Both the position numbers and the translations under genes were made by a program. 64,000 bases of DNA from Candidatus Fraserbacteria bacterium (GTDB lineage: Bacteria; Bipolaricaulota; Bipolaricaulia; RBG-16-55-9; DRXL01): the NCBI GenBank assembly GCA_037440025.1, contig JBBIUX010000002.1:82975-146974 (forward strand), read 5' to 3'. Under the pieces are notes generated by a model. It saw nothing but the letters and a program-made list of their open reading frames with translations, searched no databases and was not told the origin of the DNA. Shown in pieces: positions 14,721 to 62,425 of this stretch; within the stretch, counting starts at the first letter, position 1; each line of letters starts with the position of its first letter.

Positions 14721-15506
14721 ATGAAGAAGTTGCTCATAGCATTCATCGTCTTGGGAATGAGCGTGGCTGCCACTGCCCAGACCGTAGACGTGACGGTCTC
14801 GATCAGCCTGCCCCTCACCCCGTCTGGGGTCTCGCTCGACCAGTTGATCTGCTCGGTGCAAGCCCAAACGGAGATCGAGAACTGGCAGATGGGCGGTCAG
14901 CTCGACATGACGCTCATGCCCTTCAACCCGAAACAGTTGCTCTTGACCGCTCACGGCGTCATGGGCGACTTCACTATTGACAACCAAGTTGTGCTAGACT
15001 TCCAAAACCCCATCCGAGAGCAAGTTACAGTGAGCACGAAGTACGCAGAGCTCGATCTCGCGCTCACCCTGGCGTATAGCTACACGCTGATCCCAGAGTT
15101 CACATTCGATTTTGGGAGCGCCACAGTGGGCGTATCTACGACCACGACTGAGGGCGTTCACCTTGCGAGCGCCACGACGATGACCCTACAAAGTTTCTCG
15201 AAGCAAGCTTTCACGATGGGCTTCTCTGTTCAGGGGGTCTTGATCTCGCGAACGACCGAGCTGACGATGGCAGGACTCTCTCAAGAAATCTGGGAGGTCT
15301 CTCTGCGCATACAAGAGTGGGCCCTCACGCGCACAACGGTCTACACCGCTGAGGGCTTCGCGTCTGATACCCTGAGCGTGAGCAAGCTGTTTGGCGACTA
15401 TCTCTTGGTCGGGACGACGGTCTTCGACAAAACGGGTTGGGCCAAGAGCCTGACGGTGAGCCGAACGTTCACCGAGATCGCGCTCGGAGGCAGTTCTTCG
15501 CCGTAG
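14721..15506 (+). CDS. Secreted Thr/Ser-rich hypothetical protein
   Basis: Start at MKKLLIAFIVLGMSVAATAQ (signal peptide) with GGAGG RBS. The 20-aa N-extension in the ORF track is rejected. Confidence 0.55.
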   Translation: MKKLLIAFIVLGMSVAATAQTVDVTVSISLPLTPSGVSLDQLICSVQAQTEIENWQMGGQLDMTLMPFNPKQLLLTAHGVMGDFTIDNQVVLDFQNPIREQVTVSTKYAELDLALTLAYSYTLIPEFTFDFGSATVGVSTTTTEGVHLASATTMTLQSFSKQAFTMGFSVQGVLISRTTELTMAGLSQEIWEVSLRIQEWALTRTTVYTAEGFASDTLSVSKLFGDYLLVGTTVFDKTGWAKSLTVSRTFTEIALGGSSSP

Positions 15507-15707: not shown

Positions 15708-17504
15708 CTATCGCCGCCCGAACTTTTTCTCTAACTCTTCTAACGAATACACCAACACAACCGGTCGTCCATGCGGGCAGCTATACGGGTTCTGCGCTCG
15801 CTTCAATTGGCGCACCAGTTCTTGCATCTCTTCAAGTCGTAACGACTGGTTCTTCACCACGGCGCCTTCGCACGCCACCCGCGCTGCCAACGTCTTGGCA
15901 AGCTCCTCCAGCGTCGGCTCGGCTTCGTGTTCGAGGACGGAGAGCATTTGCTCGATCGCTTCTTTGAAATCGGCCTTGCTCCAGTCGCTCGTCAGCACTT
16001 GCGGCCAAGCTCTCAGAATAAAAGTCCCGCCGCCAAAGTGCTCAAGACCAATTCCCACGCGCTCGTCCAACTCTTTCCGGTGAGCCGCGAGGAGTTCAGC
16101 TTGATCTGGCGGCATTTCAATAGTGACCGGGATCAGGAGCCGCTGGCGCACGATCTTGCCCTCTTTCAGTTGAGCGAGAAATTTTTCGTAGAGAATTCGC
16201 TCGTGGGCCACGTGTTGATCAATGATCTCTAAACCAGACTCCGTCTGAACTAAGATATACGTCCCGTGGAGTTGGCCCAACACGCGAAAGGCAGACACGG
16301 GCTCGGTGGCTGCAGGGGAGGGAGAAGGTGGGGCAGAGAACTGGCGGCGTTCTTCTATCTCTGTGCGCAGATCGAGCTGCGCGGAGGGAGAGGCCCTTAC
16401 TCCTGATTCTTCACCCTCACCTCCATCTCCTCTCCCCTCGGAGGGAGAGGGGAGCAGAGGGGTGAGGGGTGAGGGGCTAGGGGGAGAGGTTGGGAGTTTT
16501 TCAAACCTCGGCATCGCATGAGCTGACGTGAGCGCCCTGGTGATCGCCTGTTTGACAAGAGCTTGCACTTTGATCGGCTCGGCAAAGCGCACTTCGGCCT
16601 TTTGGGGATGCACGTTTACATCGACAGCTTGTGGGGCAATCTCGATGAAGAGAAAGATATACGGGTGCTGCTCGCCCTTGAGAAGACTGTCATAAGCCAT
16701 CGAGATCGCGTAATTGATCTGGGGGTCTTTCACAAAGCGCCCGTTGACGAAGATGAATTGTTCGGTTCTATCTGAGCGCGTCAGCTGAGGTGCGCTGATC
16801 AGCCCGTGAATTTTCAGCCCGGGGATTTCGGCGCGCGCGTCGAGCAGCGCTTTCGCCAGCTCAGCATTGTAGAGATGAGCGATAGCCTGACGCAGATCGC
16901 AGCTTGGCGGGGCGTCGAGAATTTTTTTCGCATTATGTTCAGCGCGAAAGTGTACGCTGGGGTACGCGAGCACAAAACGCTTGATCGTTCGCACAACATG
17001 AAAAAACTCCGTCTTTTCGGATTTCAAGAACTTCCGGCGCGCCGGAAGGTTAAAGAACAGTTCGCGGACATCTATCGTCGTGCCACGGGCGCGCCCAGCA
17101 GCTTTTACAGATGTGATGTGCCCGCCCTCGATCTCAGCGCGCACGCCCTCCGGCGCCGCTTCGCTTTTGCTGATAATCACCGTCTTGGAGACCTCGACGA
17201 TGCTGGCAAGCGCCTCGCCGCGAAAACCGAGCGTGCGAATGTCAAACAGATCGTCTTCAGAAGAGATTTTGCTCGTCGTATGGCGCTGAATGGCTAACAA
17301 TACATCTTCTTGGCTCATGCCCTCGCCGTCGTCAGCGACACAGAGGCGCTGCTCGCCGCTGCCTTCGACGAAGAGTTCAATCTTCGTCGCCCCGGCATCA
17401 AGAGCGTTTTCGATCAATTCCTTGGCAACTGATGCAGGACGCTCGATCACTTCCCCCGCGGCGATCTTGTTCACCAAGTGCGAATCCAAGACTTTGACTT
17501 TCAT
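15708..17504 (-). CDS. mutL: DNA mismatch repair protein MutL
   Basis: 598 aa with N-terminal GHKL ATPase motifs (...IAAGEVIERPASVAKELIENALDAGAT...) and C-terminal dimerisation domain. The linker contains a palindromic-repeat insertion. Confidence 0.9.
   Translation of the reverse strand: MKVKVLDSHLVNKIAAGEVIERPASVAKELIENALDAGATKIELFVEGSGEQRLCVADDGEGMSQEDVLLAIQRHTTSKISSEDDLFDIRTLGFRGEALASIVEVSKTVIISKSEAAPEGVRAEIEGGHITSVKAAGRARGTTIDVRELFFNLPARRKFLKSEKTEFFHVVRTIKRFVLAYPSVHFRAEHNAKKILDAPPSCDLRQAIAHLYNAELAKALLDARAEIPGLKIHGLISAPQLTRSDRTEQFIFVNGRFVKDPQINYAISMAYDSLLKGEQHPYIFLFIEIAPQAVDVNVHPQKAEVRFAEPIKVQALVKQAITRALTSAHAMPRFEKLPTSPPSPSPLTPLLPSPSEGRGDGGEGEESGVRASPSAQLDLRTEIEERRQFSAPPSPSPAATEPVSAFRVLGQLHGTYILVQTESGLEIIDQHVAHERILYEKFLAQLKEGKIVRQRLLIPVTIEMPPDQAELLAAHRKELDERVGIGLEHFGGGTFILRAWPQVLTSDWSKADFKEAIEQMLSVLEHEAEPTLEELAKTLAARVACEGAVVKNQSLRLEEMQELVRQLKRAQNPYSCPHGRPVVLVYSLEELEKKFGRR
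16405..16490. repeat. GC-rich nested palindromic element (copy inside the mutL linker coding sequence)
   Basis: CACCCTCACC...CTCTCCCCTCGGAGGGAGAGGGGAG...GGTGAGGGGTGAGGGG. Encodes the in-frame PSPSPLTPLLPSPSEGRGDGGEGEE stretch of MutL. Confidence 0.55.
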
Positions 17505-30091: not shown

Positions 30092-32110
30092 ATGGCGTTC
30101 GCCTGGACTCCTACACCCGAGTACATCGAGCACAGCAACATCTGGCGCTTCATGCAGAAATATAATATCACAGACTACGCCGAGCTTGTCCGACGCTCGA
30201 CCGACGAGATCGAATGGTTCTGGGACGCCATCGTCAAAGAGTTGCAAATCGAGTTCTTCACACCCTACAGACAAGTCTTAGACGTCTCCCAGGGGATCCC
30301 GTGGGCCAAGTGGTTCGTCGGCGGGAAGATCAATATTGCCCACAATTGCGTAGATAAGCATGCTCACGCTCGCCCAGAGAAGATCGCGCTCATCTGGGAG
30401 GGGGAAGACCGAAGCGTCCGGCGGCTCACCTACCGAGAACTCTACGAGCAGACGAATCGCTTGGCCAACGCCCTCAAGAGACTGGGTATCGTGAAGGGAG
30501 ATCGTGTCGGGATCTTTATGCCCATGCTGCCCGAGACGGTCATGGCTCTCTTAGCGTGCGCCAAGATTGGTGCGATCTGTACCCCGATCTTTTCGGGTTT
30601 TGGCGCTCACGCCGTGGCCGCACGGCTGAATGACTGTGAGGCCAAGCTCCTGATCACGGCTGAGAGCTTCTCGCGCAAGGGAGCGCGCATCGAGATGGGC
30701 AAGATCGCCCAAGAGGCCGTCAGGCTCAGCCCGACGGTAGAGCATCTGATTGTCTGTGAGCAGCGGGCCCTCACCCCCGACCCGGACCTAACCCCAACCC
30801 CTTCCCTAACTAAGGGAAGGGGCTCCCCTCCCTCTTTAGGGGAGGGGCTGGGGGAGAGGTCAAGGGAAGGGGGCCAGGGGGGTAGGTCGGTCAGATGGCA
30901 CGAGCTCACTCAGCGAGAACCTTCAGAATGCCCCACAGAGCAGACAGACTCCGAAGACCCGTTTATGATCATCTATACGTCGGGGACGACGGGCCGGCCC
31001 AAGGGCGCTGTGCACGTTCATGGGGGATTTTTGGTGAAGATCGCTCAAGAAGTGGCCCATCAAGTCGATCTCCATCCCGAAGATATTCTCTACTGGGTGA
31101 CGGACATGGGTTGGATCATGGGGCCCTGGGAGGTCGTGGGCGGGTTGGCCTTGGGTGGCACAGTCTTTCTCTATGAGGGAGCACCGGACTATCCCCACGT
31201 AGACCGATTATGGGAGATGGTCGAGCGCCATAAGATCTCTATTTTGGGTATTTCGCCGACGCTGATTCGGGCGCTGATGAAGTTCGGCGAAGGTCCGATC
31301 AAAAAGCATAATCTCAGCAGTCTGAGAATTTTAGCTTCGACGGGGGAGCCGTGGAACCCCGCTCCGTGGCTATGGTTCTTTGAGCACGTCGGCGGCAGGC
31401 GCTGTCCTATTATTAATCTTTCCGGAGGGACGGAGGTCGGGGCGTGCTTCTTATCGCCCTTGCCCATTACGCCCTTAAAACCCTGTGCCTTGGTCGGCCC
31501 GGCGTTGGGGATGGCTGTAGACGTCTTCGACGCGGACGGCCATCCGTTGCGTGGCGGCGTTGGGGAGTTAGTCTGTAAAAAGCCTTGGCCGGGGATGACT
31601 CGCGGGGTCTGGAAGGACCCGGAGCGATATATTCAGACCTATTGGTCGCGCTGGGAGAACGTCTGGGTGCATGGGGACTGGGCTTCGATTGACGCGGACG
31701 GCTTGTGGTATCTGCACGGGCGCAGTGACGATACGATAAAAATTGCGGGGAAGCGTCTTGGGCCGGCGGAGATCGAGTCTGTGTTGGTGGGCCATCCAGG
31801 AGTGGCCGAGTCGGCAGCCATCGGCGTACCGCACGAATTGAAGGGTGAAGCCATCTGGTGCTATGCCGTTTTGAGGCCAGGCTATGAGCCCAATGACGCT
31901 TTGAGGAAGGAGCTACGCGAGCGGGTCATAGAAGCCTTGGGCAAGTCCTTTGCGCCGGAGCAGATAAAATTTGTCCAAGAGCTGCCCAAGACGCGCAACG
32001 CCAAGATTCTCCGCCGGGCGATCCGCGCGAAAGTTTTGGGCCAAGAGTTGGGCGATCTTTCTAATCTTGAGAACCCTCAGGCGTTGGAGGAGATCGCTCA
32101 AGCTGTGTGA
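30092..32110 (+). CDS. acs: Acetyl-CoA synthetase-like AMP-forming acyl-CoA synthetase
   Basis: 672 aa with the AMP-binding motif IIYTSGTTGRPKG and ACS-like N- and C-termini. A low-complexity insertion of about 35 aa is encoded by a palindromic repeat. Confidence 0.85.
   Translation: MAFAWTPTPEYIEHSNIWRFMQKYNITDYAELVRRSTDEIEWFWDAIVKELQIEFFTPYRQVLDVSQGIPWAKWFVGGKINIAHNCVDKHAHARPEKIALIWEGEDRSVRRLTYRELYEQTNRLANALKRLGIVKGDRVGIFMPMLPETVMALLACAKIGAICTPIFSGFGAHAVAARLNDCEAKLLITAESFSRKGARIEMGKIAQEAVRLSPTVEHLIVCEQRALTPDPDLTPTPSLTKGRGSPPSLGEGLGERSREGGQGGRSVRWHELTQREPSECPTEQTDSEDPFMIIYTSGTTGRPKGAVHVHGGFLVKIAQEVAHQVDLHPEDILYWVTDMGWIMGPWEVVGGLALGGTVFLYEGAPDYPHVDRLWEMVERHKISILGISPTLIRALMKFGEGPIKKHNLSSLRILASTGEPWNPAPWLWFFEHVGGRRCPIINLSGGTEVGACFLSPLPITPLKPCALVGPALGMAVDVFDADGHPLRGGVGELVCKKPWPGMTRGVWKDPERYIQTYWSRWENVWVHGDWASIDADGLWYLHGRSDDTIKIAGKRLGPAEIESVLVGHPGVAESAAIGVPHELKGEAIWCYAVLRPGYEPNDALRKELRERVIEALGKSFAPEQIKFVQELPKTRNAKILRRAIRAKVLGQELGDLSNLENPQALEEIAQAV
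30770..30895. repeat. GC-rich nested palindromic element (copy in-frame inside acs)
   Basis: Hairpins CCCCTTCCC-taactaa-GGGAAGGGG and CCCCTCCC-tcttta-GGGGAGGGG, with outer CCGGACCTAACCCC / GGGGGGTAGGTCGG. Translated as ...TPTPSLTKGRGSPPSLGEGLGERSREGGQGG.... Confidence 0.6.
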
Positions 32111-32232
32111 AAGCAGGGGGCACGGTGCGCTATGCTCTCTAAGCAGCTCTTCCATACTCATGGGGCGTGAGTCGTTGAGCATGAGCATCATACCTCCTAG
32201 GATTTCGACTCACGCCGCCTGGGGCAACCCCC

Positions 32233-32290
32233 CTGCTCAGGCTCATCTTGCATGAGAAAGAAGGGCGGGCTTCAGGCTCATCTTGCGTGA
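32233..32290 (+). repeat. Direct repeats CAGGCTCATCTTGC(A/G)TGAGA, two copies 38 bp apart, spanning the start of the first paralog gene
   Basis: Copies at 32233-32252 and 32271-32290. The second contains the TTG start of ORF 32283. Confidence 0.5.
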
Positions 32291-32783
32291 GACAAGACTA
32301 TCGTTAGGGTGGGTCGGCGGCCTCTCCCAGACGTCGCAGATCGTCACCATCAACGTCAGCCAATCGCTCTATCTGGACTGCTCAGCCTCGGCAAACATCA
32401 CCTATACCGTCACTCAGAGCAATATCGAGGGCTCACAACCGTTCAACATCGGGACGTGGAGCTGCAACGTGGACTCGCTGACGAATTTCACATTGAGCGC
32501 CGATATGACCATGACGTCTACAGCAGATATTCTCAATTCGAGTGCTGATGATTTCTCCGAGACCTGTACGACAGCTTCTGGCGGCGGCACTCCAATCTGT
32601 GGCGCGGGCGGCACCTTTGGCCCGATCACCCTGGGCAGCGGCGGCAATACTGCTGGGAGTTTAGGCGCAGTTCTTTCAGGGAACGTCTGGCTCAACGTGA
32701 GCGACTGGGATGTCAAGTCCATCCCGCCAACACGAAGCGTCAGCGGGACGATCAATTACTCCGTGTCAGACTCGACACCATAG
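32283..32783 (+). CDS. Small paralog 1 of a secreted-protein triad (degenerate N-terminus, no intact signal peptide)
   Basis: TTG start. Shares QSLYLDC, W(S/G)CNVD, the ADDF...C pair, WDV and the C-terminal GTINYSVSDSTP motif with paralogs 2 and 3. Its N-terminus aligns only to the end of the paralog-3 signal peptide. Confidence 0.5.
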   Translation: MRETRLSLGWVGGLSQTSQIVTINVSQSLYLDCSASANITYTVTQSNIEGSQPFNIGTWSCNVDSLTNFTLSADMTMTSTADILNSSADDFSETCTTASGGGTPICGAGGTFGPITLGSGGNTAGSLGAVLSGNVWLNVSDWDVKSIPPTRSVSGTINYSVSDSTP

Positions 32784-32813
32784 CGCAAAAATCTTGAAAG
32801 TAGGGCATGCATC

Positions 32814-33368
32814 ATGACCAGAAAGCTTCTCATCGCGCTGCTCGTCGGGGCTATCGGCTTATCTCTGTCCTCGGGGCTAGTCGCCCAGCAGAACGTGACT
32901 ATCGAGATCGGCCAGTCGCTCTATCTTGACTGTGTGCCTCCGGTTCAGCCGGGAGATATTTATTATATCATCTTGCAGGCTGATATCGAAGCGCCACAGC
33001 CCATTGACATCGGCGACTGGGGCTGCAACGTTGATGCCGTGACACAATACAGACTGAACTCTCAGTTCACGTCCTTCTCTGCGCCCTATGTTGTCAACGC
33101 CGACACATCCGACTTCACGGCTGACTGCTATAGTGCTGACGACTTCGGCGCTTGTGCACCAAATCAGTCGCTCACGATGGGCGATGTAGACCCCAACACG
33201 CGACGCGGCACGGGCTACAACACCGCCGGCACAGATGGCGCGGACTTTGAGGGCGATATTTTCGTGAACATGGGCGTCGGCCCCGCAGGCTGGGATGTTC
33301 AGTCCTCACAGCTGCCCGTCTTTGTGACCGGCACGATCACCTACACGGTGACGGATACTACTCCCTAA
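32814..33368 (+). CDS. Small secreted paralog 2
   Basis: Signal peptide MTRKLLIALLVGAIGLSLSSGLVAQQ, two Cys pairs, and C-terminal VTGTITYTVTDTTP. Confidence 0.6.
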   Translation: MTRKLLIALLVGAIGLSLSSGLVAQQNVTIEIGQSLYLDCVPPVQPGDIYYIILQADIEAPQPIDIGDWGCNVDAVTQYRLNSQFTSFSAPYVVNADTSDFTADCYSADDFGACAPNQSLTMGDVDPNTRRGTGYNTAGTDGADFEGDIFVNMGVGPAGWDVQSSQLPVFVTGTITYTVTDTTP

Positions 33369-33405
33369 CGAGCTTAAGTATCGCTAGAATCTGGGGGAGA
33401 TTTTT

Positions 33406-33930
33406 ATGAGGACTCCAAGGGTCACCGTGGTGCTGATGCTCTTGACCGCGCTGCTCCCCTGGGGCGGCTTGGCTCAGACGAGCCAAACTGTGCGCGTGAC
33501 GCTCGTCATCCCCCAGCCGCTCTTCATCCAAGCCGTTATCCCATCTATTACGGTCGAGATCACGCCCTTGGAGATCGAGGGGCCGCAGCCGTTCAAGATC
33601 GGCGATTGGCACGTCAACATTGACGCTCTGACGCCCTACCGGCTCAACTCGTCGGTCGTGACCGTAGACACGAATATCTTCGATGCCGGGCCTGAAGACT
33701 TTTCCACCGATTGCGATTTCGCTGACGACTTCGGCGTCTGCACGGATAAGACGTCGCTGTCGGAGCCCGATCCCCAGAACCGCCGCGGCTTTGGGGAGAA
33801 CACCGCAGGGCTCAATGGCGCAGACTTTAGGGGCGAGATCTTCTTGGATATTCGCTCGTGGGACGTGAGCACGCTGCCGGGATTCTATCTCGGTGTCATT
33901 CTCTTTACGACGACAGACACGACACCTTAG
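33406..33930 (+). CDS. Small secreted paralog 3
   Basis: Signal peptide MRTPRVTVVLMLLTALLPWGGLAQTSQ, the Cys pair TDC...GVC, and C-terminal ...TTTDTTP. Confidence 0.6.
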   Translation: MRTPRVTVVLMLLTALLPWGGLAQTSQTVRVTLVIPQPLFIQAVIPSITVEITPLEIEGPQPFKIGDWHVNIDALTPYRLNSSVVTVDTNIFDAGPEDFSTDCDFADDFGVCTDKTSLSEPDPQNRRGFGENTAGLNGADFRGEIFLDIRSWDVSTLPGFYLGVILFTTTDTTP

Positions 33931-33939
33931 GAGTAGAGC

Positions 33940-34863
33940 ATGAAGCTCATACGTGCCTTGGGATTGCTTGTGCTCGTGCTCACCGTGGGGAGCTTGCTTG
34001 TGCAGGCCGTCTCCCAAGGCCCAAACTATGCCAGCACTTTTTCTAATGTAGGGTGGACAGACCCCTCTAACGCTACGGGCACCCCAGATAATCTCTGCGC
34101 GTCGCGCAGCGCTCCCGGAGGAGCATTAGATCTCACAGGTTTTGGCTTCACCATCCCCGATGCAGCCGTCATTCAGGGGATCACCGTCGAAGTGAAATTT
34201 GCTGGCTCTGATACTACTGATGGCGTACGAGCGCGCCTGCTCAAGGGCGGATCTCCCGTGGGCAATACCCAAGATATTTTCGGGGTCGCAGGGCAGACCG
34301 ACTGCAGCACCAGTGCCTTCCGCACAGTGGGCAGCCCCACGGATCTCTGGGGCACCACCTGGACCGCCACAGAGATCAACGCCGCAAACTTTGGGGTGCG
34401 CCTGTCAAAACTCGGTTCCACAGGCACTTCGTATGTGGACTCCGTGCGCATCACGGTTGAATACCAAGACGTGATGACCGTGACCGTGATCTCTGGCGGG
34501 GCGCTCTCGGCCAACGTCAATAGCGCTTCCGTCGTCGAGTCCGGCAAGGTCGAGTTTCTCAGTCAGACGACGCTGCAAGTCGTCTCGACGAAGAACTGGC
34601 GCGTCCGGGCCGTTGCATCGGTGACAAGCTACCCCCCTGGAGCCGATGACCCCACGGGCAACGCCGTCGAAGTGAAGAATTATCTGGGGAATTTCGAGCC
34701 TGCGGGGAGCCTCCCCGGCGTCATCGTGGCCACGGGTACACCGACCCCAGCCGGCGGCGTGACCGTGAACGTTGATATGCGGGTGATGCTCGATGATTTT
34801 GGCGACGGCAAGATCGGCTCGTATCAGTTTACCGTGAATTACTCTATCGAAGAAGATATCTGA
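33940..34863 (+). CDS. Secreted two-domain protein; the C-terminal domain shows WxL-like features
   Basis: Signal peptide MKLIRALGLLVLVLTVGSLLVQA. C-terminal domain has ...STKNWRVRAVAS... and terminal ...YQFTVNYSIEEDI. AGGAG RBS. Confidence 0.55.
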   Translation: MKLIRALGLLVLVLTVGSLLVQAVSQGPNYASTFSNVGWTDPSNATGTPDNLCASRSAPGGALDLTGFGFTIPDAAVIQGITVEVKFAGSDTTDGVRARLLKGGSPVGNTQDIFGVAGQTDCSTSAFRTVGSPTDLWGTTWTATEINAANFGVRLSKLGSTGTSYVDSVRITVEYQDVMTVTVISGGALSANVNSASVVESGKVEFLSQTTLQVVSTKNWRVRAVASVTSYPPGADDPTGNAVEVKNYLGNFEPAGSLPGVIVATGTPTPAGGVTVNVDMRVMLDDFGDGKIGSYQFTVNYSIEEDI

Positions 34864-34875
34864 AGGGGTGTCTCT

Positions 34876-35700
34876 ATGAGCAAGAGCGTGGTGCGATGGA
34901 GCTTTCTCGCTGTATTGCTGTGGGCCAGCTCGCTCATTGTGCAGGCCCAGATCGGCATATCTGCTCTCAGTGTGGACGTCAATCTCCCTCCCGGAGGCAG
35001 TTTTACCGGAGCGTTTGAAGTGATCAACAGCAGCGATCAGCCCCGCGAGTTCACCGTCGAACTGAAAGATTATGAGAGAAATATCGAGGGCGGCTTGGTC
35101 CTCCTCAATCCGGGGACGCACCAGCGCTCGCTCGCCAAGTTCTTATCGTTTACCCCGGCGCAGTTTGCGCTTGCCCCCAAGCAGAAACAGCTTATCACAT
35201 TCAAGATCGAGATTCCTGCGACGAAGCGTGGGCCGCACTGGGCGGCGCTCGCTGTGACGAGTCCAGCGCCGTCGTCGGGCGCTCAGCCGCCGCCTCCGCC
35301 GCCGGGACAGCAGCCTTCTATTCCCGTCAGTATCGGCACAGCCGAACAATTTGTCGTCAAAATTCGCCATACTGATCCAACAAACGCTGTCAATCGCGGT
35401 CGAATTGTAAGCGTACAGACGTTGCTGCCGGAGCGCGACAAGCCCTTGCGCATCGTCGTCGAGTACGAGAACACCGGGACAACATTTCAAATAGCAAAGA
35501 CGCAGCTACGCATTGTGAACGCCAATGGGGAGATCGTTGTGCAGAAAGCAGCCGAAGAAATGGCGATGCTCCCCGGCGGCAAGCGACGCTTGGAGATCCC
35601 CGTGACGGAGAGATTGCCGTCGGGAACGTACTTGGCGTTGGTGATCATTGATTTTGGCGGCGACTTTTTAGTTGCCGGGCAGGTGCGGTTTCAGATTTGA
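34876..35700 (+). CDS. Secreted protein with two Ig-like beta-sandwich domains joined by a Pro-rich linker (DUF916/DUF3324-like, or chaperone-like)
   Basis: Signal peptide, domain 1 (...FTVELKDY...LITFKIEIP...), linker SPAPSSGAQPPPPPPGQQP, domain 2 (...IVVEYENTGTTFQIAKTQLRIVNANGEIVV...LPSGTYLALVIIDFGGD...). No C-terminal membrane anchor. Confidence 0.55.
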   Translation: MSKSVVRWSFLAVLLWASSLIVQAQIGISALSVDVNLPPGGSFTGAFEVINSSDQPREFTVELKDYERNIEGGLVLLNPGTHQRSLAKFLSFTPAQFALAPKQKQLITFKIEIPATKRGPHWAALAVTSPAPSSGAQPPPPPPGQQPSIPVSIGTAEQFVVKIRHTDPTNAVNRGRIVSVQTLLPERDKPLRIVVEYENTGTTFQIAKTQLRIVNANGEIVVQKAAEEMAMLPGGKRRLEIPVTERLPSGTYLALVIIDFGGDFLVAGQVRFQI

Positions 35701-35709
35701 AAAAATATA

Positions 35710-35796
35710 CCCCCTCACCCCGGATGGAGGTTCGCAAGTTCGCGAGTTCACGGGTTCGAACTCGTGAACCTTCGAACCCCCTTGAGGGGTGAGGGT
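35710..35796. repeat. GC-rich nested palindromic element (intergenic copy)
   Basis: CCCCTCACCCC ... inner palindrome GAGTTCACGGGTTCGAACTCGTGAAC ... GGGGTGAGGGTG. Confidence 0.55.
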
Positions 35797-35813
35797 GCAT
35801 CAGGGAGGCTTTC

Positions 35814-38744
35814 ATGGTGAAGAGAGCGTGTGCGGGGATTGCGCTCGTGCTCATGGCGGTTTGCACAGCCCTTGCCCAAGGGCAGCCCATTGAGCTGATT
35901 GCGCCGCCGCCACGCTCGACCCTGCCCGGCGATATCGTCACCCTCACGTTTTTGGCCATCAACCGCGGAACAGCAGCCGATACTTATCTCTTCTCGGTAG
36001 ACGCACCGGCAACCTTTCAGGTCATCGGGGCGATCCCGCCGCTGACGCTCGCCCCCGGCGCTCAGGAGCCGGTCTTCGTCACCCTGCTCGTTTTGCAAGA
36101 GGCGCCCGCTGGAACGTACACTATCGCGCTCGAAGCCGTCTCTCAGGGCGACCCTGCTGTGAGAGCCCGCGCCCAGACGACGATCACCATCGAGAAGACC
36201 GCCGGGGTCATAGTGCGTGCCCCCGATTCCCAAGAAGTCGACCCCGGCAGCGAAGTGATTCTCTCGTTCAGTGTGACCAACCGGGGCAACGTTATAGACG
36301 CATTCCGGCTGGAGGCTTTCACGCCACGGGGCTTTGCGACGCGCGTTGAGCCGGGGCTGGTGGAGCTGCTGCCGGGCGAGACGCGCTCGGTCTTGGTTAC
36401 TGTAAGAATTCCCCAAGACGCCCCGGCGGGGTTTGAGCCGGTCACGCTTACGGCGGTCTCGCTGCGCAGCGAAGGGGTACAAGCCAACGGTGCGACGACG
36501 CTGATCATTCTGCCGCCGGAAGCTGCCAAAGTCCCCACAGCGCTTCACTTGCTCGCCCCCGCGGAGCTCGCCGTGAGTGCTAACGTCGCCTTGAGCAGCA
36601 GTACCTTGACCCCGCTCATCTCGTTTCTGACCTACGCGACGCTGCCCGAAGAGCAACGCTTTAGTTTCAAGATCACAATCTCGGATATTGTGCGATCTCA
36701 GATTCCTTCTGGCTTGCCCATCAGCGTGAAAGAGTTTTTCTTCACCTCGCAGCGCGAGACGTTCTTTGTGCATCTGGGGGATCTCCCGCAGTCGCCCTTG
36801 ATCTATAACGCGCTGCCGCGACGCGGCGTCGAGCTGGGATTCACGAATTTCTTTTCGCTGATGGCGACGTTTGAAGACCAAGATGGGGATTTCACCCAAG
36901 AGCAGAAAGCCCTAGCTTTGAACTTCAACGGGGCGAGCGTGCGGGCGTCGCTGGCACGTCTCAGCGTCTTCGGTGCTACTCCCTACACGCTCACGGCAGC
37001 GAACTTCCGCAGCGGCGTGCTCGCTGCCGAAGGAGCCGTCGCCGAAGTGAGTGCTGGCCTGCGCCGCATGTTCTTCTTGCGTGCCGCTCCCTCGTTCTTC
37101 GGGGTGACATTGGGTGGGGAATACTTGCGAGTTGAACCGGACTTCCCTAGCTTGACCGGTGTGCCCGCTGTCATATCTGATACCCAGATCTGGTCGCTCT
37201 TCGGCACCGGATCGGCCGGAGCACTGGCGTTCGGTGCCCTGGTCTCCGGCAAGAGAACCGATCTCTTCAGCCAGCCAACTATCCAAGAGCTCACCGCTAT
37301 CACATCGCAAGGGCGGCTTATTATAAGAAGTTTCTTACTGGGGTTGCCCAGCGTCTTCTTCGACGTCAAATTCATCTCTCGACGGAGCAACGATCCCCCG
37401 TTTGCGCCCTTGAGCACCGACGAGGATATCAAATCTCTCACGATTGCTGACATCGCCAGCCCCATCAGCTATGTGCTGACTTTCCAGAGTAATCTCTTCC
37501 GGGACAATCTCAATCCCGCTAATAATACTGATACGTTCGAGTTCTCCAGCTCGCTCATTACGCGCCCGTTGCTAGGCGTTGAAGGGCTTTCGCTTAATCT
37601 GAGTGCCAAGGGCACTTTCCAAGTCGACCCTAATACGAACACCACGCTCGATCATCAGGTGACGGTCATCGGGCGCTTGGCGTTCACGACCGCTCGCGTC
37701 TCCATGTTCTTGCTTTTGGGGCTGAACACGAATCTGCTCTACTCGTTCTTCTCGAGCTACTTCGGGTCGTTCAGCGCGACGCTCTTCGGCCCGGTGAGCG
37801 CCTCGTTCTCGTTTGCCTTCACCGAGCCGTCGTCGCTCAGCTTTACTCTCGAAGTGCGCACGAAGTTCGCCATGCCCTTCGAGTCTGTGATCATCAAGGG
37901 GCGCGTCGAGGGCTATCTCTTCGTAGACTTAAACAACAACGGCCAACGCGATCAGGGCGAACCTGGCGTCAAAGACGCGCTCTTACGATTAGACAATCAA
38001 CTCGCTCGCACCGATGCCCAAGGGTACTTCAGGTTCCCGCCCGTCGCCCCCGGCTCATACAGAGTCGAGATCGCACGAGCGCCCGTGGGCCTCGTCCCGA
38101 CCGTGCCTCTGCCCGTCTCAGTGGCGGTCGCCGTCGGACAAGTAGTCTCTTTAGAAATCCCCATGCGCTCGGTGGGCATCGTCACTGGACGAGTCTTCGA
38201 CGACAAGAACCGCAACGGCAAAGCCGATCCTGATGAACCCGGTTTAGCCAATGTGCGCGTCTTCGCCGTCGGCGCAACAAGCGTCGAAACCCGCTCCGGC
38301 GCCAACGGCCAGTACGTCTTGCAGGTGCCGCCGGGCAGCTACACCGTGACGTTGGATCGAACGACCCTGCCCAAGCGCTATGAGCCGACGACGCCGCTCA
38401 GCGCGACCGTGACAGTACAAACCGGCCAGACGGTCACTCTAGATTTCGGCGCGTACGAAGTCCCGCGCCCGGTGCTCTTTGCCCCCATCGCTGACTTTAC
38501 GTTCACACTGGCTCAGCCCAGAGTCGGCGAGAGAGTGCTCTTCGACGCGTCGGCGTCTACAGACAGCGACGGCCAGATCGTGCGCTACGAGTGGGACTTC
38601 AACGGCGACGGCAAGCCCGATGCTGTGGGCAAGATCGTCGAGTGGACTTTCACCAGAGCGGGCGACTTCCCCGTCAAACTCACGGTCACGGACAACGACG
38701 ATCTCCAGAATTCTATTACCAAGACCGTCCCCGTGCGGCCATGA
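35814..38744 (+). CDS. Large secreted multidomain protein: N-terminal CARDB/DUF11-like Ig repeats, beta-strand-rich core, three Cna-B/SdrD-B-like domains, C-terminal PKD domain
   Basis: Signal peptide MVKRACAGIALVLMAVCTALAQG. Repeats with PG(T/S)Y...I...A.S. The central roughly 350 aa are rich in alternating F/S/T/L. Three ...DxNxNGxxDxGExG...TDAxGxYxF..PGxYxV... modules. ...RYEWDFNGDGKPDAVG...FPVKLTVTDNDDL... is a PKD domain. Confidence 0.65.
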   Translation: MVKRACAGIALVLMAVCTALAQGQPIELIAPPPRSTLPGDIVTLTFLAINRGTAADTYLFSVDAPATFQVIGAIPPLTLAPGAQEPVFVTLLVLQEAPAGTYTIALEAVSQGDPAVRARAQTTITIEKTAGVIVRAPDSQEVDPGSEVILSFSVTNRGNVIDAFRLEAFTPRGFATRVEPGLVELLPGETRSVLVTVRIPQDAPAGFEPVTLTAVSLRSEGVQANGATTLIILPPEAAKVPTALHLLAPAELAVSANVALSSSTLTPLISFLTYATLPEEQRFSFKITISDIVRSQIPSGLPISVKEFFFTSQRETFFVHLGDLPQSPLIYNALPRRGVELGFTNFFSLMATFEDQDGDFTQEQKALALNFNGASVRASLARLSVFGATPYTLTAANFRSGVLAAEGAVAEVSAGLRRMFFLRAAPSFFGVTLGGEYLRVEPDFPSLTGVPAVISDTQIWSLFGTGSAGALAFGALVSGKRTDLFSQPTIQELTAITSQGRLIIRSFLLGLPSVFFDVKFISRRSNDPPFAPLSTDEDIKSLTIADIASPISYVLTFQSNLFRDNLNPANNTDTFEFSSSLITRPLLGVEGLSLNLSAKGTFQVDPNTNTTLDHQVTVIGRLAFTTARVSMFLLLGLNTNLLYSFFSSYFGSFSATLFGPVSASFSFAFTEPSSLSFTLEVRTKFAMPFESVIIKGRVEGYLFVDLNNNGQRDQGEPGVKDALLRLDNQLARTDAQGYFRFPPVAPGSYRVEIARAPVGLVPTVPLPVSVAVAVGQVVSLEIPMRSVGIVTGRVFDDKNRNGKADPDEPGLANVRVFAVGATSVETRSGANGQYVLQVPPGSYTVTLDRTTLPKRYEPTTPLSATVTVQTGQTVTLDFGAYEVPRPVLFAPIADFTFTLAQPRVGERVLFDASASTDSDGQIVRYEWDFNGDGKPDAVGKIVEWTFTRAGDFPVKLTVTDNDDLQNSITKTVPVRP

Positions 38745-39469
38745 GAAAGAGCGTCCTCTTTGCGCTCGGCGGGGCCCTGATTTTCGTCGTCGTCGCTCTG
38801 TGGGCCTGGCAGAGATTTTCCGTGCAATACGAAGAGAGCGCCGGCCCGATCAGGGTCTCACCAGTGAAGACAACCGTACAGGGCGACCCCGACGACTTTG
38901 TGACCGTCGTCTTCACGCTGCGCAATCTCAGCGACCAAGAACGCTCTTACGAACTCTCCGTCGAAGCTCCGGAGGGCTGGACGCTGCTCGACGGGCTCTC
39001 GAGCATCGCTGTTGGCTCTCACGCTCAGCAAGAGATCTTTCTCACCATGCAGATCCCGCCGGGGACGCCGCCGGGACGCTATTGGCTCACGCTTCGTGCT
39101 CATAGCGATTCCGATTCCGCTGTCGGGAAAACTCAGATTGTCGTACGGGCTCGCGAGCGCCTCAAGCTTGCGCTCACTTCGTCTGATCTGATTGCCCGCC
39201 CTAATGAAGAGACGACTCTTGCATTGACAGTGACCAATCGTGGGAACGTCTCGGCTCGCGTCACGCTTGCAGTCACAGCGGCGCCGGTGGGGTGGCAGTT
39301 TCGGCTGCGCGAGGACTCTTTCGCGCTCGTGCCGGGCGAGAGTAAAGCTGTCGAACTGACTGTCAAGCCCTTGGCTGAGGCAGAGCTTGCGCCGGGGCGG
39401 TTCACGGTGCAGGCGACGTCCCCCTCCGCTCGCGACGAGCTCTCTCTTACGGTTGTGCTCTCGCCCTAG
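38741..39469 (+). CDS. N-terminally membrane-anchored protein with two CARDB/DUF11-like domains
   Basis: Start MRKSVLFALGGALIFVVVALWAW (TM anchor), ATGA overlap with the previous gene. Two repeats of ...PG.Y.L.L.A.S.... Confidence 0.55.
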   Translation: MRKSVLFALGGALIFVVVALWAWQRFSVQYEESAGPIRVSPVKTTVQGDPDDFVTVVFTLRNLSDQERSYELSVEAPEGWTLLDGLSSIAVGSHAQQEIFLTMQIPPGTPPGRYWLTLRAHSDSDSAVGKTQIVVRARERLKLALTSSDLIARPNEETTLALTVTNRGNVSARVTLAVTAAPVGWQFRLREDSFALVPGESKAVELTVKPLAEAELAPGRFTVQATSPSARDELSLTVVLSP

Positions 39470-62295: not shown

Positions 62296-62303
62296 GGATG
62301 GTT

Positions 62304-62412
62304 GGCCCTCACCCCCTGTGACCTCTCCCCCGACCCCTCCCCTAAAGAGGGAGGGGAGTTCCCCCTTCCCTTTAGGGAAGGGGGCTTGGGGGTTAGGGCG
62401 GGGGTGAGGGCC
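62304..62412. repeat. GC-rich nested palindromic element (intergenic, between the SBP and permease genes)
   Basis: Outer GGCCCTCACCCCC / GGGGGTGAGGGCC. Inner hairpins CCCCTCCC-ctaaaga-GGGAGGGG and CCCCCTTCCC-ttta-GGGAAGGGGG. Confidence 0.6.
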
Positions 62413-62425
62413 AGGAAGGTGCGCC

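Follow-up and report, generated by a model that had tools for sequence, protein, structure and literature searches.

The central part of a 64,000-nucleotide stretch of DNA from a Candidatus Fraserbacteria bacterium (contig JBBIUX010000002.1, positions 82,975 to 146,974; hereafter the window) carries three tandem paralogous genes for small exported proteins, par1, par2 and par3, which head a seven-gene operon continued by g4, g5, g6 and g7. The three proteins may be the small subunits of a WxL-type cell-envelope complex in Bipolaricaulota (Acetothermia), a reading which is put forward tentatively and given somewhat less than an even chance. WxL clusters have been described as peptidoglycan-anchored display systems of monoderm Bacilli. 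At its smallest, such a cluster consists of small WxL proteins, one large WxL protein whose N-terminal domains serve in binding, and the WxLIP protein (PMC9772566), WxLIP having the architecture DUF916-DUF3324-transmembrane (TM) helix (PMC9772566, PMC10599100, PMC1534035). The operon described here looks like a new and strongly diverged variant of these WxL/WxLIP-type surface-protein systems, unannotated, in Bipolaricaulota.

The three tandem paralogues

Aligned over their full length, the products of par1, par2 and par3 are 38-47% identical (48-55% at the DNA level) and share 42 invariant columns. An earlier note on this DNA had reported three tandem open reading frames (ORFs) whose proteins align from end to end; both points were borne out, the genes lying on the plus strand at exactly the coordinates that it gave (Table 1). 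The motifs that it named are all present, namely QSLYLDC, (T/D)WxCNVD, a second Cys pair and the C-terminal GTINYSVSDSTP, GTITYTVTDTTP and VILFTTTDTTP, and a WDV sits about 24 residues before the end. Among the invariant positions are the W of (T/D)WxCNVD, D-F-x3-C, G-x-G-x-N-T-A-G, W-D-V and the terminal D-x-T-P. The motif of WxL type is the WxC/WxV at residue 69 (par2 numbering), not WDV. As also reported, par3 lacks the first Cys pair, reading WHVNID and LFIQAV at these places; in a 22-sequence family alignment this pair co-varies perfectly, with both Cys present or neither. The claim of a common ADDF...C pair was correct only in part: a C-x8-C pair occurs in all three proteins, but ADDF itself had been mis-registered, the ADDF of par1 pairing in the alignment with the TSDF and PEDF of par2 and par3 (the invariant D-F-x-x-x-C) and not with the later ADDFGxC.

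The conservation of these motifs in the triad goes beyond chance. The orthologues of each paralogue form a group of their own, and the same gene order is found in at least nine other genomes. Identity to orthologues is 78-86% for par1, 81-89% for par2 and 60-87% for par3, with ratios of nonsynonymous to synonymous substitution (dN/dS) of 0.05-0.18, 0.07-0.10 and 0.09-0.14, respectively. Between the paralogues, dS is saturated. A very recent duplication, with over 90% nucleotide identity, had been named as the finding that would explain the shared motifs away; this explanation fails, because the paralogues are far more diverged in DNA than that, their dS is saturated, and each is under purifying selection relative to its orthologues.

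The family is narrowly distributed. The triad gave zero matches in searches of Pfam, NCBIfam and PDB sequences. A family hidden Markov model run against 1.84 billion cluster representatives recovered only 20 proteins at E < 1e-3, and apart from the family itself this search returned only a few repeat-protein matches. The exact protein and relatives of 74-89% identity come from metagenome-assembled genomes (MAGs) of Candidatus Bipolaricaulota / Acetothermia, including Acetithermum autotrophicum H5SVB5. A scan of 185,579 GTDB species genomes yielded 11 loci, labelled as Bipolaricaulota/Acetothermia MAGs except for two Thermotogae and one Fraserbacteria.

A two-Ig protein related to WxLIP

Two genes past the triad, g5 encodes a protein with two tandem immunoglobulin (Ig)-like domains which, judged from profile comparisons, is a remote homologue of WxLIP (DUF916+DUF3324) and PapD-like in shape. 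Its predicted structure, with a predicted local distance difference test score (pLDDT) of 85, consists of two sandwiches joined by a Pro/Gln linker. The best match of the g5 family profile among PDB sequences was EfmWxLIP1 (9i25_C/9i1y_A; E 0.005), and hhalign comparison with four WxLIPs gave a probability of 94.6% (E 7e-8) over 216 columns across both domains, so that the two tandem Ig-like domains of g5 are homologous to DUF916 and DUF3324. Pfam WxLIP_PGBD matches were obtained for 9 of the 21 g5-family members, below threshold, with a best E of 1.2e-4. The resemblance to PapD chaperones is confined to the overall two-domain shape: the hhalign control against E. coli FimC reached only 7%, and of the chaperone-usher PapD family (PF00345/PF02753) PapD_N was matched by 1/21 members, at E 0.066. 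g5 is proposed as a strand-donating partner or chaperone of the subunits.

The last gene of the operon, g7, is paralogous to g5 (hhalign comparison with the g5 family: probability 84.8%, E 6.6e-6, 203 columns), with Pfam and NCBIfam matches to NPCBM_assoc and choice-of-anchor T. Its start codon overlaps the stop codon of g6 (ATGA), and the first 210 residues of g6 (35814-36512) are about 30% identical to g7 (38741-39469). As both g7 and the N-terminus of g6 are paralogous to g5, the operon carries three WxLIP-like modules, one soluble, one membrane-anchored and one fused to a giant protein.

Comparison with WxL domains

The two motifs of a WxL protein sit on neighboring strands of the core, motif 2 at the very C-terminal end, with about 106 residues between them in small and about 68 residues in large WxL proteins (PMC9772566). 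A hairpin strand of WxLIP that fills a gap in the WxL sandwich has been predicted with AlphaFold2 (AF2) (PMC10599100). WxL clusters for the comparison were recovered from plasmids by means of a motif. Genuine clusters from Enterococcus gilvus pCR1A (L018 4131-7533) and a B. thuringiensis plasmid (L019) contain three tandem small paralogues followed by a two-Ig protein. The motifs of the fetched proteins vary naturally: GYRVNV ... LTYSVVTGP (B. thuringiensis) and TVAVVQGP (Listeria) are found beside the classical GWTLQV ... TFTWVLTDAPGN, and in the Bacillus WxL proteins Y/V replace W/L in both motifs.

When the triad was compared with these proteins by hhalign, its IGxWxCNVDAxTxY was set on WxL motif 1 (P 0.016), and with another WxL alignment its last 49 columns (GxGxNTAGT ... 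GTITYTVTD) were set on the WxL C-terminus (P 0.019). A permissive run placed both motif matches in a single collinear end-to-end alignment. Motif 1 and motif 2 are spaced 99-110 residues apart in the triad; for the sampled WxL proteins the figure is 102-119. The genomic context is also that of a WxL cluster, with the WxLIP homologue g5 two genes past the triad, a g4 protein made of a head and a C-terminal domain of the same pattern, and a gene order that is conserved across loci.

The operon and the WxL/Csc clusters of Bacilli share two or three tandem small secreted proteins of one domain, a larger head-bearing protein with a C-terminal domain of similar kind and a two-Ig protein, in matching order (PMC9772566, PMC10599100; cf. 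the E. gilvus cluster), two conserved, similarly spaced strands of which the second closes the chain with D-x-(x)-P, and remote homology between g5 and WxLIP. They differ in several respects. The subunits of the operon are shorter, lack the Pro-rich N-terminal stretch and have one or two disulfides; their motifs are W-x-C/V and Y-x-V, and Pfam WxL and DUF916 score below threshold. A separate g5 paralogue, g7, has an N-terminal TM helix, whereas g5 has none; the core includes an additional gene, the 976-aa g6; the operon encodes neither an LPxTG protein nor a sortase; and the host belongs to a diderm, deep-branching phylum and not to Bacilli.

A number of observations weigh against a WxL-type complex. 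The literal W-x-L is absent, the triad having W-x-C/V-N-V-D-A and a terminal Y-x-V-x-D-x-T-P. Pfam WxL (PF13731) matches 0/22 family members at E up to 10; the hhalign probability between triad and WxL proteins is below 3%, and enlarging both alignments lowered the score (P 0.098). A sequence search located zero solved WxL structures with which the par2 model could be compared. g5 scores 14.7 bits for DUF916/WxLIP_PGBD against a Pfam cut-off of 27.3, FixG_C and fn3_5 score it about as well as DUF916, and the C-terminal TM helix that defines WxLIP is missing from 21/21 family members, whose chains stop directly behind the second Ig domain. WxL clusters contain no equivalent of g6. Finally, the topology must differ from that of WxL clusters, because Bipolaricaulota are diderm and WxL hosts monoderm. 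Homology of the triad with WxL domains is accordingly advanced as a well-motivated hypothesis and not as a result, since the profile probabilities are low, a Pfam WxL score is absent and the sequence search located no solved WxL structure.

The g4 and g6 proteins

The N-terminal domain of g4, spanning about residues 25-176, is of a widespread type, with relatives of 33-40% identity in many other proteins. Several of these are fused to type IX secretion system (T9SS) sorting tails (PF18962), so this domain is an extracellular module. The C-terminal domain (174-307) is specific to the cluster, with an invariant N-W-R-V and a terminal Y-S-I 79-82 residues apart, and it occurs as a stand-alone gene of 147-159 aa in L001-3, L025 and L026. 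In g4 variants a Cys in motif 1 is always accompanied by a Cys near the C-terminus (6/6 with both, 0/10 otherwise), and this co-variation indicates contact between the motif-1 and C-terminal strands, as in WxL domains. Comparison of g4 with the triad by hhalign gave a weak collinear match (P 0.023); single-sequence comparison found no similarity between them, and g4 had no match to Pfam WxL at E up to 1.

g6 is kept beside the subunits even in the most distant relatives. Its orphan region of 457 aa, for which searches of Pfam and PDB sequences found no relative, is rich in Phe (10%) and Ser/Thr (20%), and its beta-amphipathic windows stand at 0.053, compared with 0.019 +/- 0.012 in shuffles. 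No usher match (PF00577) was found for g6 in Pfam, and hhalign against FimD gave 1.3%. The orphan region could be a membrane barrel; its composition and periodicity are suggestive of this and not discriminating.

Conservation of the operon

The genes par1-par2-par3-g4-g5-g6-g7 lie on the same strand with spacers of 9-113 nt, between glmS and acs upstream and genes for a 2-hydroxyacid dehydrogenase and ftsH downstream. All seven products are predicted to be exported, six with a signal peptide and one with a signal anchor. The same order is kept in L004, L006-L012 and L015. More distant lineages (L001-3, L017) have one or two subunits, a 147-aa gene corresponding to the g4 C-terminal domain, and g5, while g6-g7 are divergently transcribed. 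The two most divergent members found (P0073 and P0076) adjoin an approximately 150-aa gene, an approximately 270-aa two-Ig gene and a gene for a giant protein (915-965 aa) that contains SdrD_B and PKD domains. As the same set recurs beside these members, the core of the system consists of the subunit, the g4 C-terminal domain, g5 and g6. P0076, which ends in ...LTYSLEFLITET, is found within this four-gene core at 6001-10906 of L026, a 3.2-Mb metagenomic contig (JGI 3300032138), so that the system may not be confined to the Bipolaricaulota sampled here.

This conservation bears on the proposal that the paralogues do not assemble at all but act separately, in ligand binding or as structural proteins, being either secreted binders or accessory proteins of the toga or S-layer, and that their likeness to pilins and WxL domains reflects only a generic Ig fold. 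Such an explanation would agree with the triad-WxL profile scores, which are not significant, and with the S-layer-like or choice-of-anchor type domains of g6 and g7. It is nevertheless quite improbable: the four-gene core is kept across very divergent relatives, the homology between g5 and WxLIP is specific, the terminal motif does not vary, and its distance from motif 1 fits WxL. The conserved core, the specific homology and the invariant, WxL-spaced motif argue for a multi-protein assembly rather than independent proteins.

Predicted structure of a subunit and strand exchange

The AF2 model of par2, computed on the family alignment (pLDDT 87.3; predicted template modelling score 0.77), is a beta-sandwich of Ig-like or jelly-roll type with strands at residues 36-39, 64-75 (which carries WGCNVD), 79-89, 130-134, 143-151 and 172-181. 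The last of these is the C-terminal motif, a long strand inside the fold with pLDDT above 90. The mature N-terminal segment, with invariant Q25 and Q26, is highly conserved and lies outside any sheet in this monomer model. A Foldseek search with the model returned the TasA fibre 8aur first (E 4e-4, probability 1.0), followed by TLP-1a, CS20, FimI/FimA and PapH; archaeal bundling pili, 0406 threads, cannulae and Tafi pili were also matched. The matches are modest, with template modelling scores (TM-scores) of about 0.4. As judged from the predicted model, the list is strikingly one-sided, consisting of secreted sandwiches to which another chain contributes the completing strand.

The earlier note had suggested subunits of a donor-strand polymer, or a non-covalent wall-binding module, with a swappable C-terminal strand. 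Both options proved relevant. Donor-strand exchange is favored by the Ig-like or jelly-roll model and the PapD/WxLIP-like two-Ig gene downstream, and the subunits may polymerise. Wall binding is favored by the proposed correspondence of the C-terminal and WxCNVD motifs to the two WxL motifs and by the neighboring WxLIP homologue. The detail of a swappable strand is probably wrong, and the conserved C-terminal strand is probably a core strand: it lies within the fold in the par2 model, every structural relative donates an N-terminal strand, its WxL equivalent is paired within the core with the strand of motif 1 (PMC9772566), and the Cys co-variation in g4 ties the C-terminal strand to the motif-1 strand.

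The fold matches raise the possibility of a matrix fibre of the TasA type, in which the paralogues would self-polymerise outside the cell by N-terminal strand donation, with the Ig neighbors serving only as anchors. TasA and TLP-1a head the list of matches, as stated above. Such a fibre is nonetheless very unlikely. The TasA/TLP-1 donor-strand fibres (8aur; 9ikj/9ikk, PMC11494351) match only at the low TM-scores already given and with 9-10% identity, a Pfam camelysin/TasA match is absent, and the operon includes neither a SipW-type peptidase nor a TapA-like gene. Moreover, TasA/TLP-1 fibres self-assemble without a two-Ig partner, whereas the triad family is always linked to one; this strict co-conservation with a WxLIP/PapD-like protein argues for assisted assembly.

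A pilus of chaperone-usher type is a less remote alternative, though on balance still unlikely. In this case par1-par3 and g4 would polymerise head-to-tail by donor-strand exchange through the N-terminal Q-x-V-T-I-x-V, with g5 as the periplasmic chaperone, g6 as the outer-membrane platform and g4 as a two-domain tip adhesin. The operon and chaperone-usher systems (Fim, Pap, CS1/CFA-I, Csu) have in common major and minor subunits, an adhesin-like two-domain protein, a two-Ig protein and a large envelope protein. In classical pilins, a disulfide joins the first strand to the second, and a disulfide between the first and second strand is also present in the subunits described here. Fold matches dominated by donor-strand-exchange subunits, a g4 composed of an adhesin-like head and a small C-terminal domain, and a conserved mature N-terminus that is free of the sheet are what would be expected of such a pilus; the g6 architecture of an N-terminal Ig, a Phe-rich beta domain of about 450 aa and a C-terminal Ig recalls an usher. 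The host has two membranes, and a cultured relative showed a few pili at the ends of its toga (bioRxiv 10.1101/2025.11.21.689855); the genome study of Hao et al. found no known pilus genes and zero fimbria or adhesin genes in the phylum (PMC6092417). The operon, however, has no sequence similarity to the PapD_N, Usher or fimbrial Pfam families, and the hhalign controls with E. coli Fim proteins, which reached the values given above for FimC and FimD and 0.8% for Fim pilins, led to rejection of sequence membership in the chaperone-usher families. The g6 barrel, like polymerisation, is hypothetical. In addition, the N-terminal strand LYLDC is tied to the motif-1 strand by its co-varying Cys, and because of this co-variation an intramolecular arrangement suits it.

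Proposed mechanism

In the WxL-type complex that is tentatively preferred, each paralogue would be a single disulfide-stabilised beta-sandwich with an open edge. The strands bearing W-x-C/V-N-V-D-A and the C-terminal I-T-Y-T-V-T-D-T-T-P would represent WxL motifs 1 and 2 and together make up the platform at the core of the domain, the C-terminal strand lying beside the open edge as a core strand. g4 would be the large subunit, with a ligand-binding head on a related C-terminal domain. g5 may insert a beta-strand into the open edge or groove of the subunit sandwich and so keep subunits folded in the periplasm; a literature search on WxL plus donor strand found only a general review. Bipolaricaulota are diderm bacteria with a toga-like outer membrane and an S-layer (bioRxiv 10.1101/2025.11.21.689855), and g7, presumably anchored in the inner membrane, together with the module fused to g6 could hold subunits, or pass them on, at either membrane. 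What results would be a complex on the surface, held together non-covalently and presenting the head of g4. The existence and age of the genes, the selection acting on them, the fold class of the subunits, the homology of g5 with WxLIP and the conserved gene order are established here; kinship of the triad with WxL domains, binding by strand insertion, the place in the cell and the part played by g6 are inferences.

Features of the region and the 5′ end of par1

The features of the operon are collected in Table 1. ORFs on the minus strand over the region (e.g. 33358-34017 and 32414-32755) were taken as frame shadows of the conserved plus-strand genes.

Table 1. Positions within the window of the operon genes, subunit motifs and associated elements.
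Feature	Position	Strand	Description
Degenerate operon 5′ region	32222..32300	+	From alignment with L004/L007/L008/L011/L015
par1	32283..32783	+	166 aa, TTG start; predicted small WxL-like subunit; motif 1 WSCNVD at residue 59; C-terminal motif GTINYSVSDSTP
par2	32814..33368	+	184 aa; best conserved of the three subunits; signal peptide, then mature N-terminus QQNVTIEIGQSLYLDC; GxGxNTAGTxGADF loop and WDV
par2 motif 1	33018-33035	+	WGCNVD (W69)
par2 C-terminal motif	33330-33365	+	GTITYTVTDTTP
par3	33406..33930	+	174 aa; lacks the first disulfide; motif 1 WHVNID (W-x-V); C-terminus GVILFTTTDTTP
g4	33940..34863	+	307 aa; two-domain predicted large subunit
g5	34876..35700	+	274 aa; soluble two-Ig protein; signal peptide, no TM helix
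Imperfect palindrome (RNA hairpin)	35707..35800	+	94 nt; g5-g6 spacer
g6	35814..38744	+	976 aa; giant with signal peptide; two NEW3/Ig (25-233, g7-like), orphan beta-type region (234-690), two SdrD_B, CarboxypepD_reg, PKD
g7	38741..39469	+	242 aa; N-terminal TM helix, then two NEW3 Ig-like domains

The 5′ end of par1 is damaged in comparison with five orthologous loci. The TTGACA-N17-TATAAT promoter of the orthologues reads GGGGCA...CATCTT here, and no promoter-like site was found when one was sought on the plus strand at the operon 5′ region. The AAGGAGG ribosome binding site (RBS) of the orthologues is lost, the start codon is TTG, and a 24-nt in-frame deletion has removed part of the hydrophobic core of the signal peptide. 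A tandem duplication, caggctcatcttgc[a/g]tgaga, adjoins these changes (32222-32340 region) and, with the altered boxes, takes the place of the promoter and RBS of the orthologues. The remainder of par1 is intact. From these sequence changes, par1 is probably poorly exported or silent in this genome.

The g5-g6 spacer folds into a hairpin with a free energy of -60.5 kcal/mol (z -5.5; 0/200 shuffles fold as well), which is not kept in those orthologous loci whose spacer is about 27 nt. It could be an intra-operon attenuator or stabiliser, or else an insertion resembling mobile palindromic elements of the repetitive extragenic palindrome (REP) or miniature inverted-repeat transposable element (MITE) kind. 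Its terminal CCCCTCACCCC motif has 9 matches in the window, compared with 1.06 expected. A G/C-rich palindromic family with CCCCTCACCCC / GGGGTGAGGG termini and a CCCCTTCCCT / AGGGAAGGGG core, REP- or MITE-like in look, has sites at 14811, 16459-16476, 30767, 35711/35786 and 62303-62413. The acetyl-CoA synthetase ORF at 30092-32110 encodes 672 aa, as against 634 aa in an orthologue; the approximately 38 extra residues (...TPSLTKGRGSPPSLGEGLGERSREGGQGGRS..., about 30740-30880) coincide with in-frame copies of the palindromic element in a variable loop.

Implications

WxL/WxLIP clusters have been regarded as peculiar to Bacilli, in which they attach adhesins to a thick peptidoglycan layer. A strongly diverged yet recognisable version in a deep-branching diderm phylum would widen the range of the system, and one must then ask how it operates beneath or upon the outer membrane. 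The analysis also gives a first functional hypothesis for seven genes annotated as hypothetical. The phylum, in which no adhesin or fibre genes had been found (PMC6092417), offers few other candidates for such a role. The two-Ig partner is structurally between WxLIP and the chaperones of chaperone-usher systems, and as the predicted fold of the subunits is pilin- or TasA-like, a shared mechanism of strand insertion becomes testable. A bolder proposal, which we regard as decidedly unlikely, is that the operon encodes an unrecognised chaperone-assisted fibre or pilus machine of the toga-bearing Bipolaricaulota, in which WxL-like subunits polymerise by donor-strand exchange and are relayed through the envelope by the three WxLIP/PapD-like modules, of which one would be anchored in the inner membrane, one soluble and one fused to an outer-membrane giant. 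If this were true, a single ancient principle of assembly by strand complementation would underlie the WxL clusters of Gram-positive bacteria, TasA-like fibres and chaperone-usher pili as its branches.

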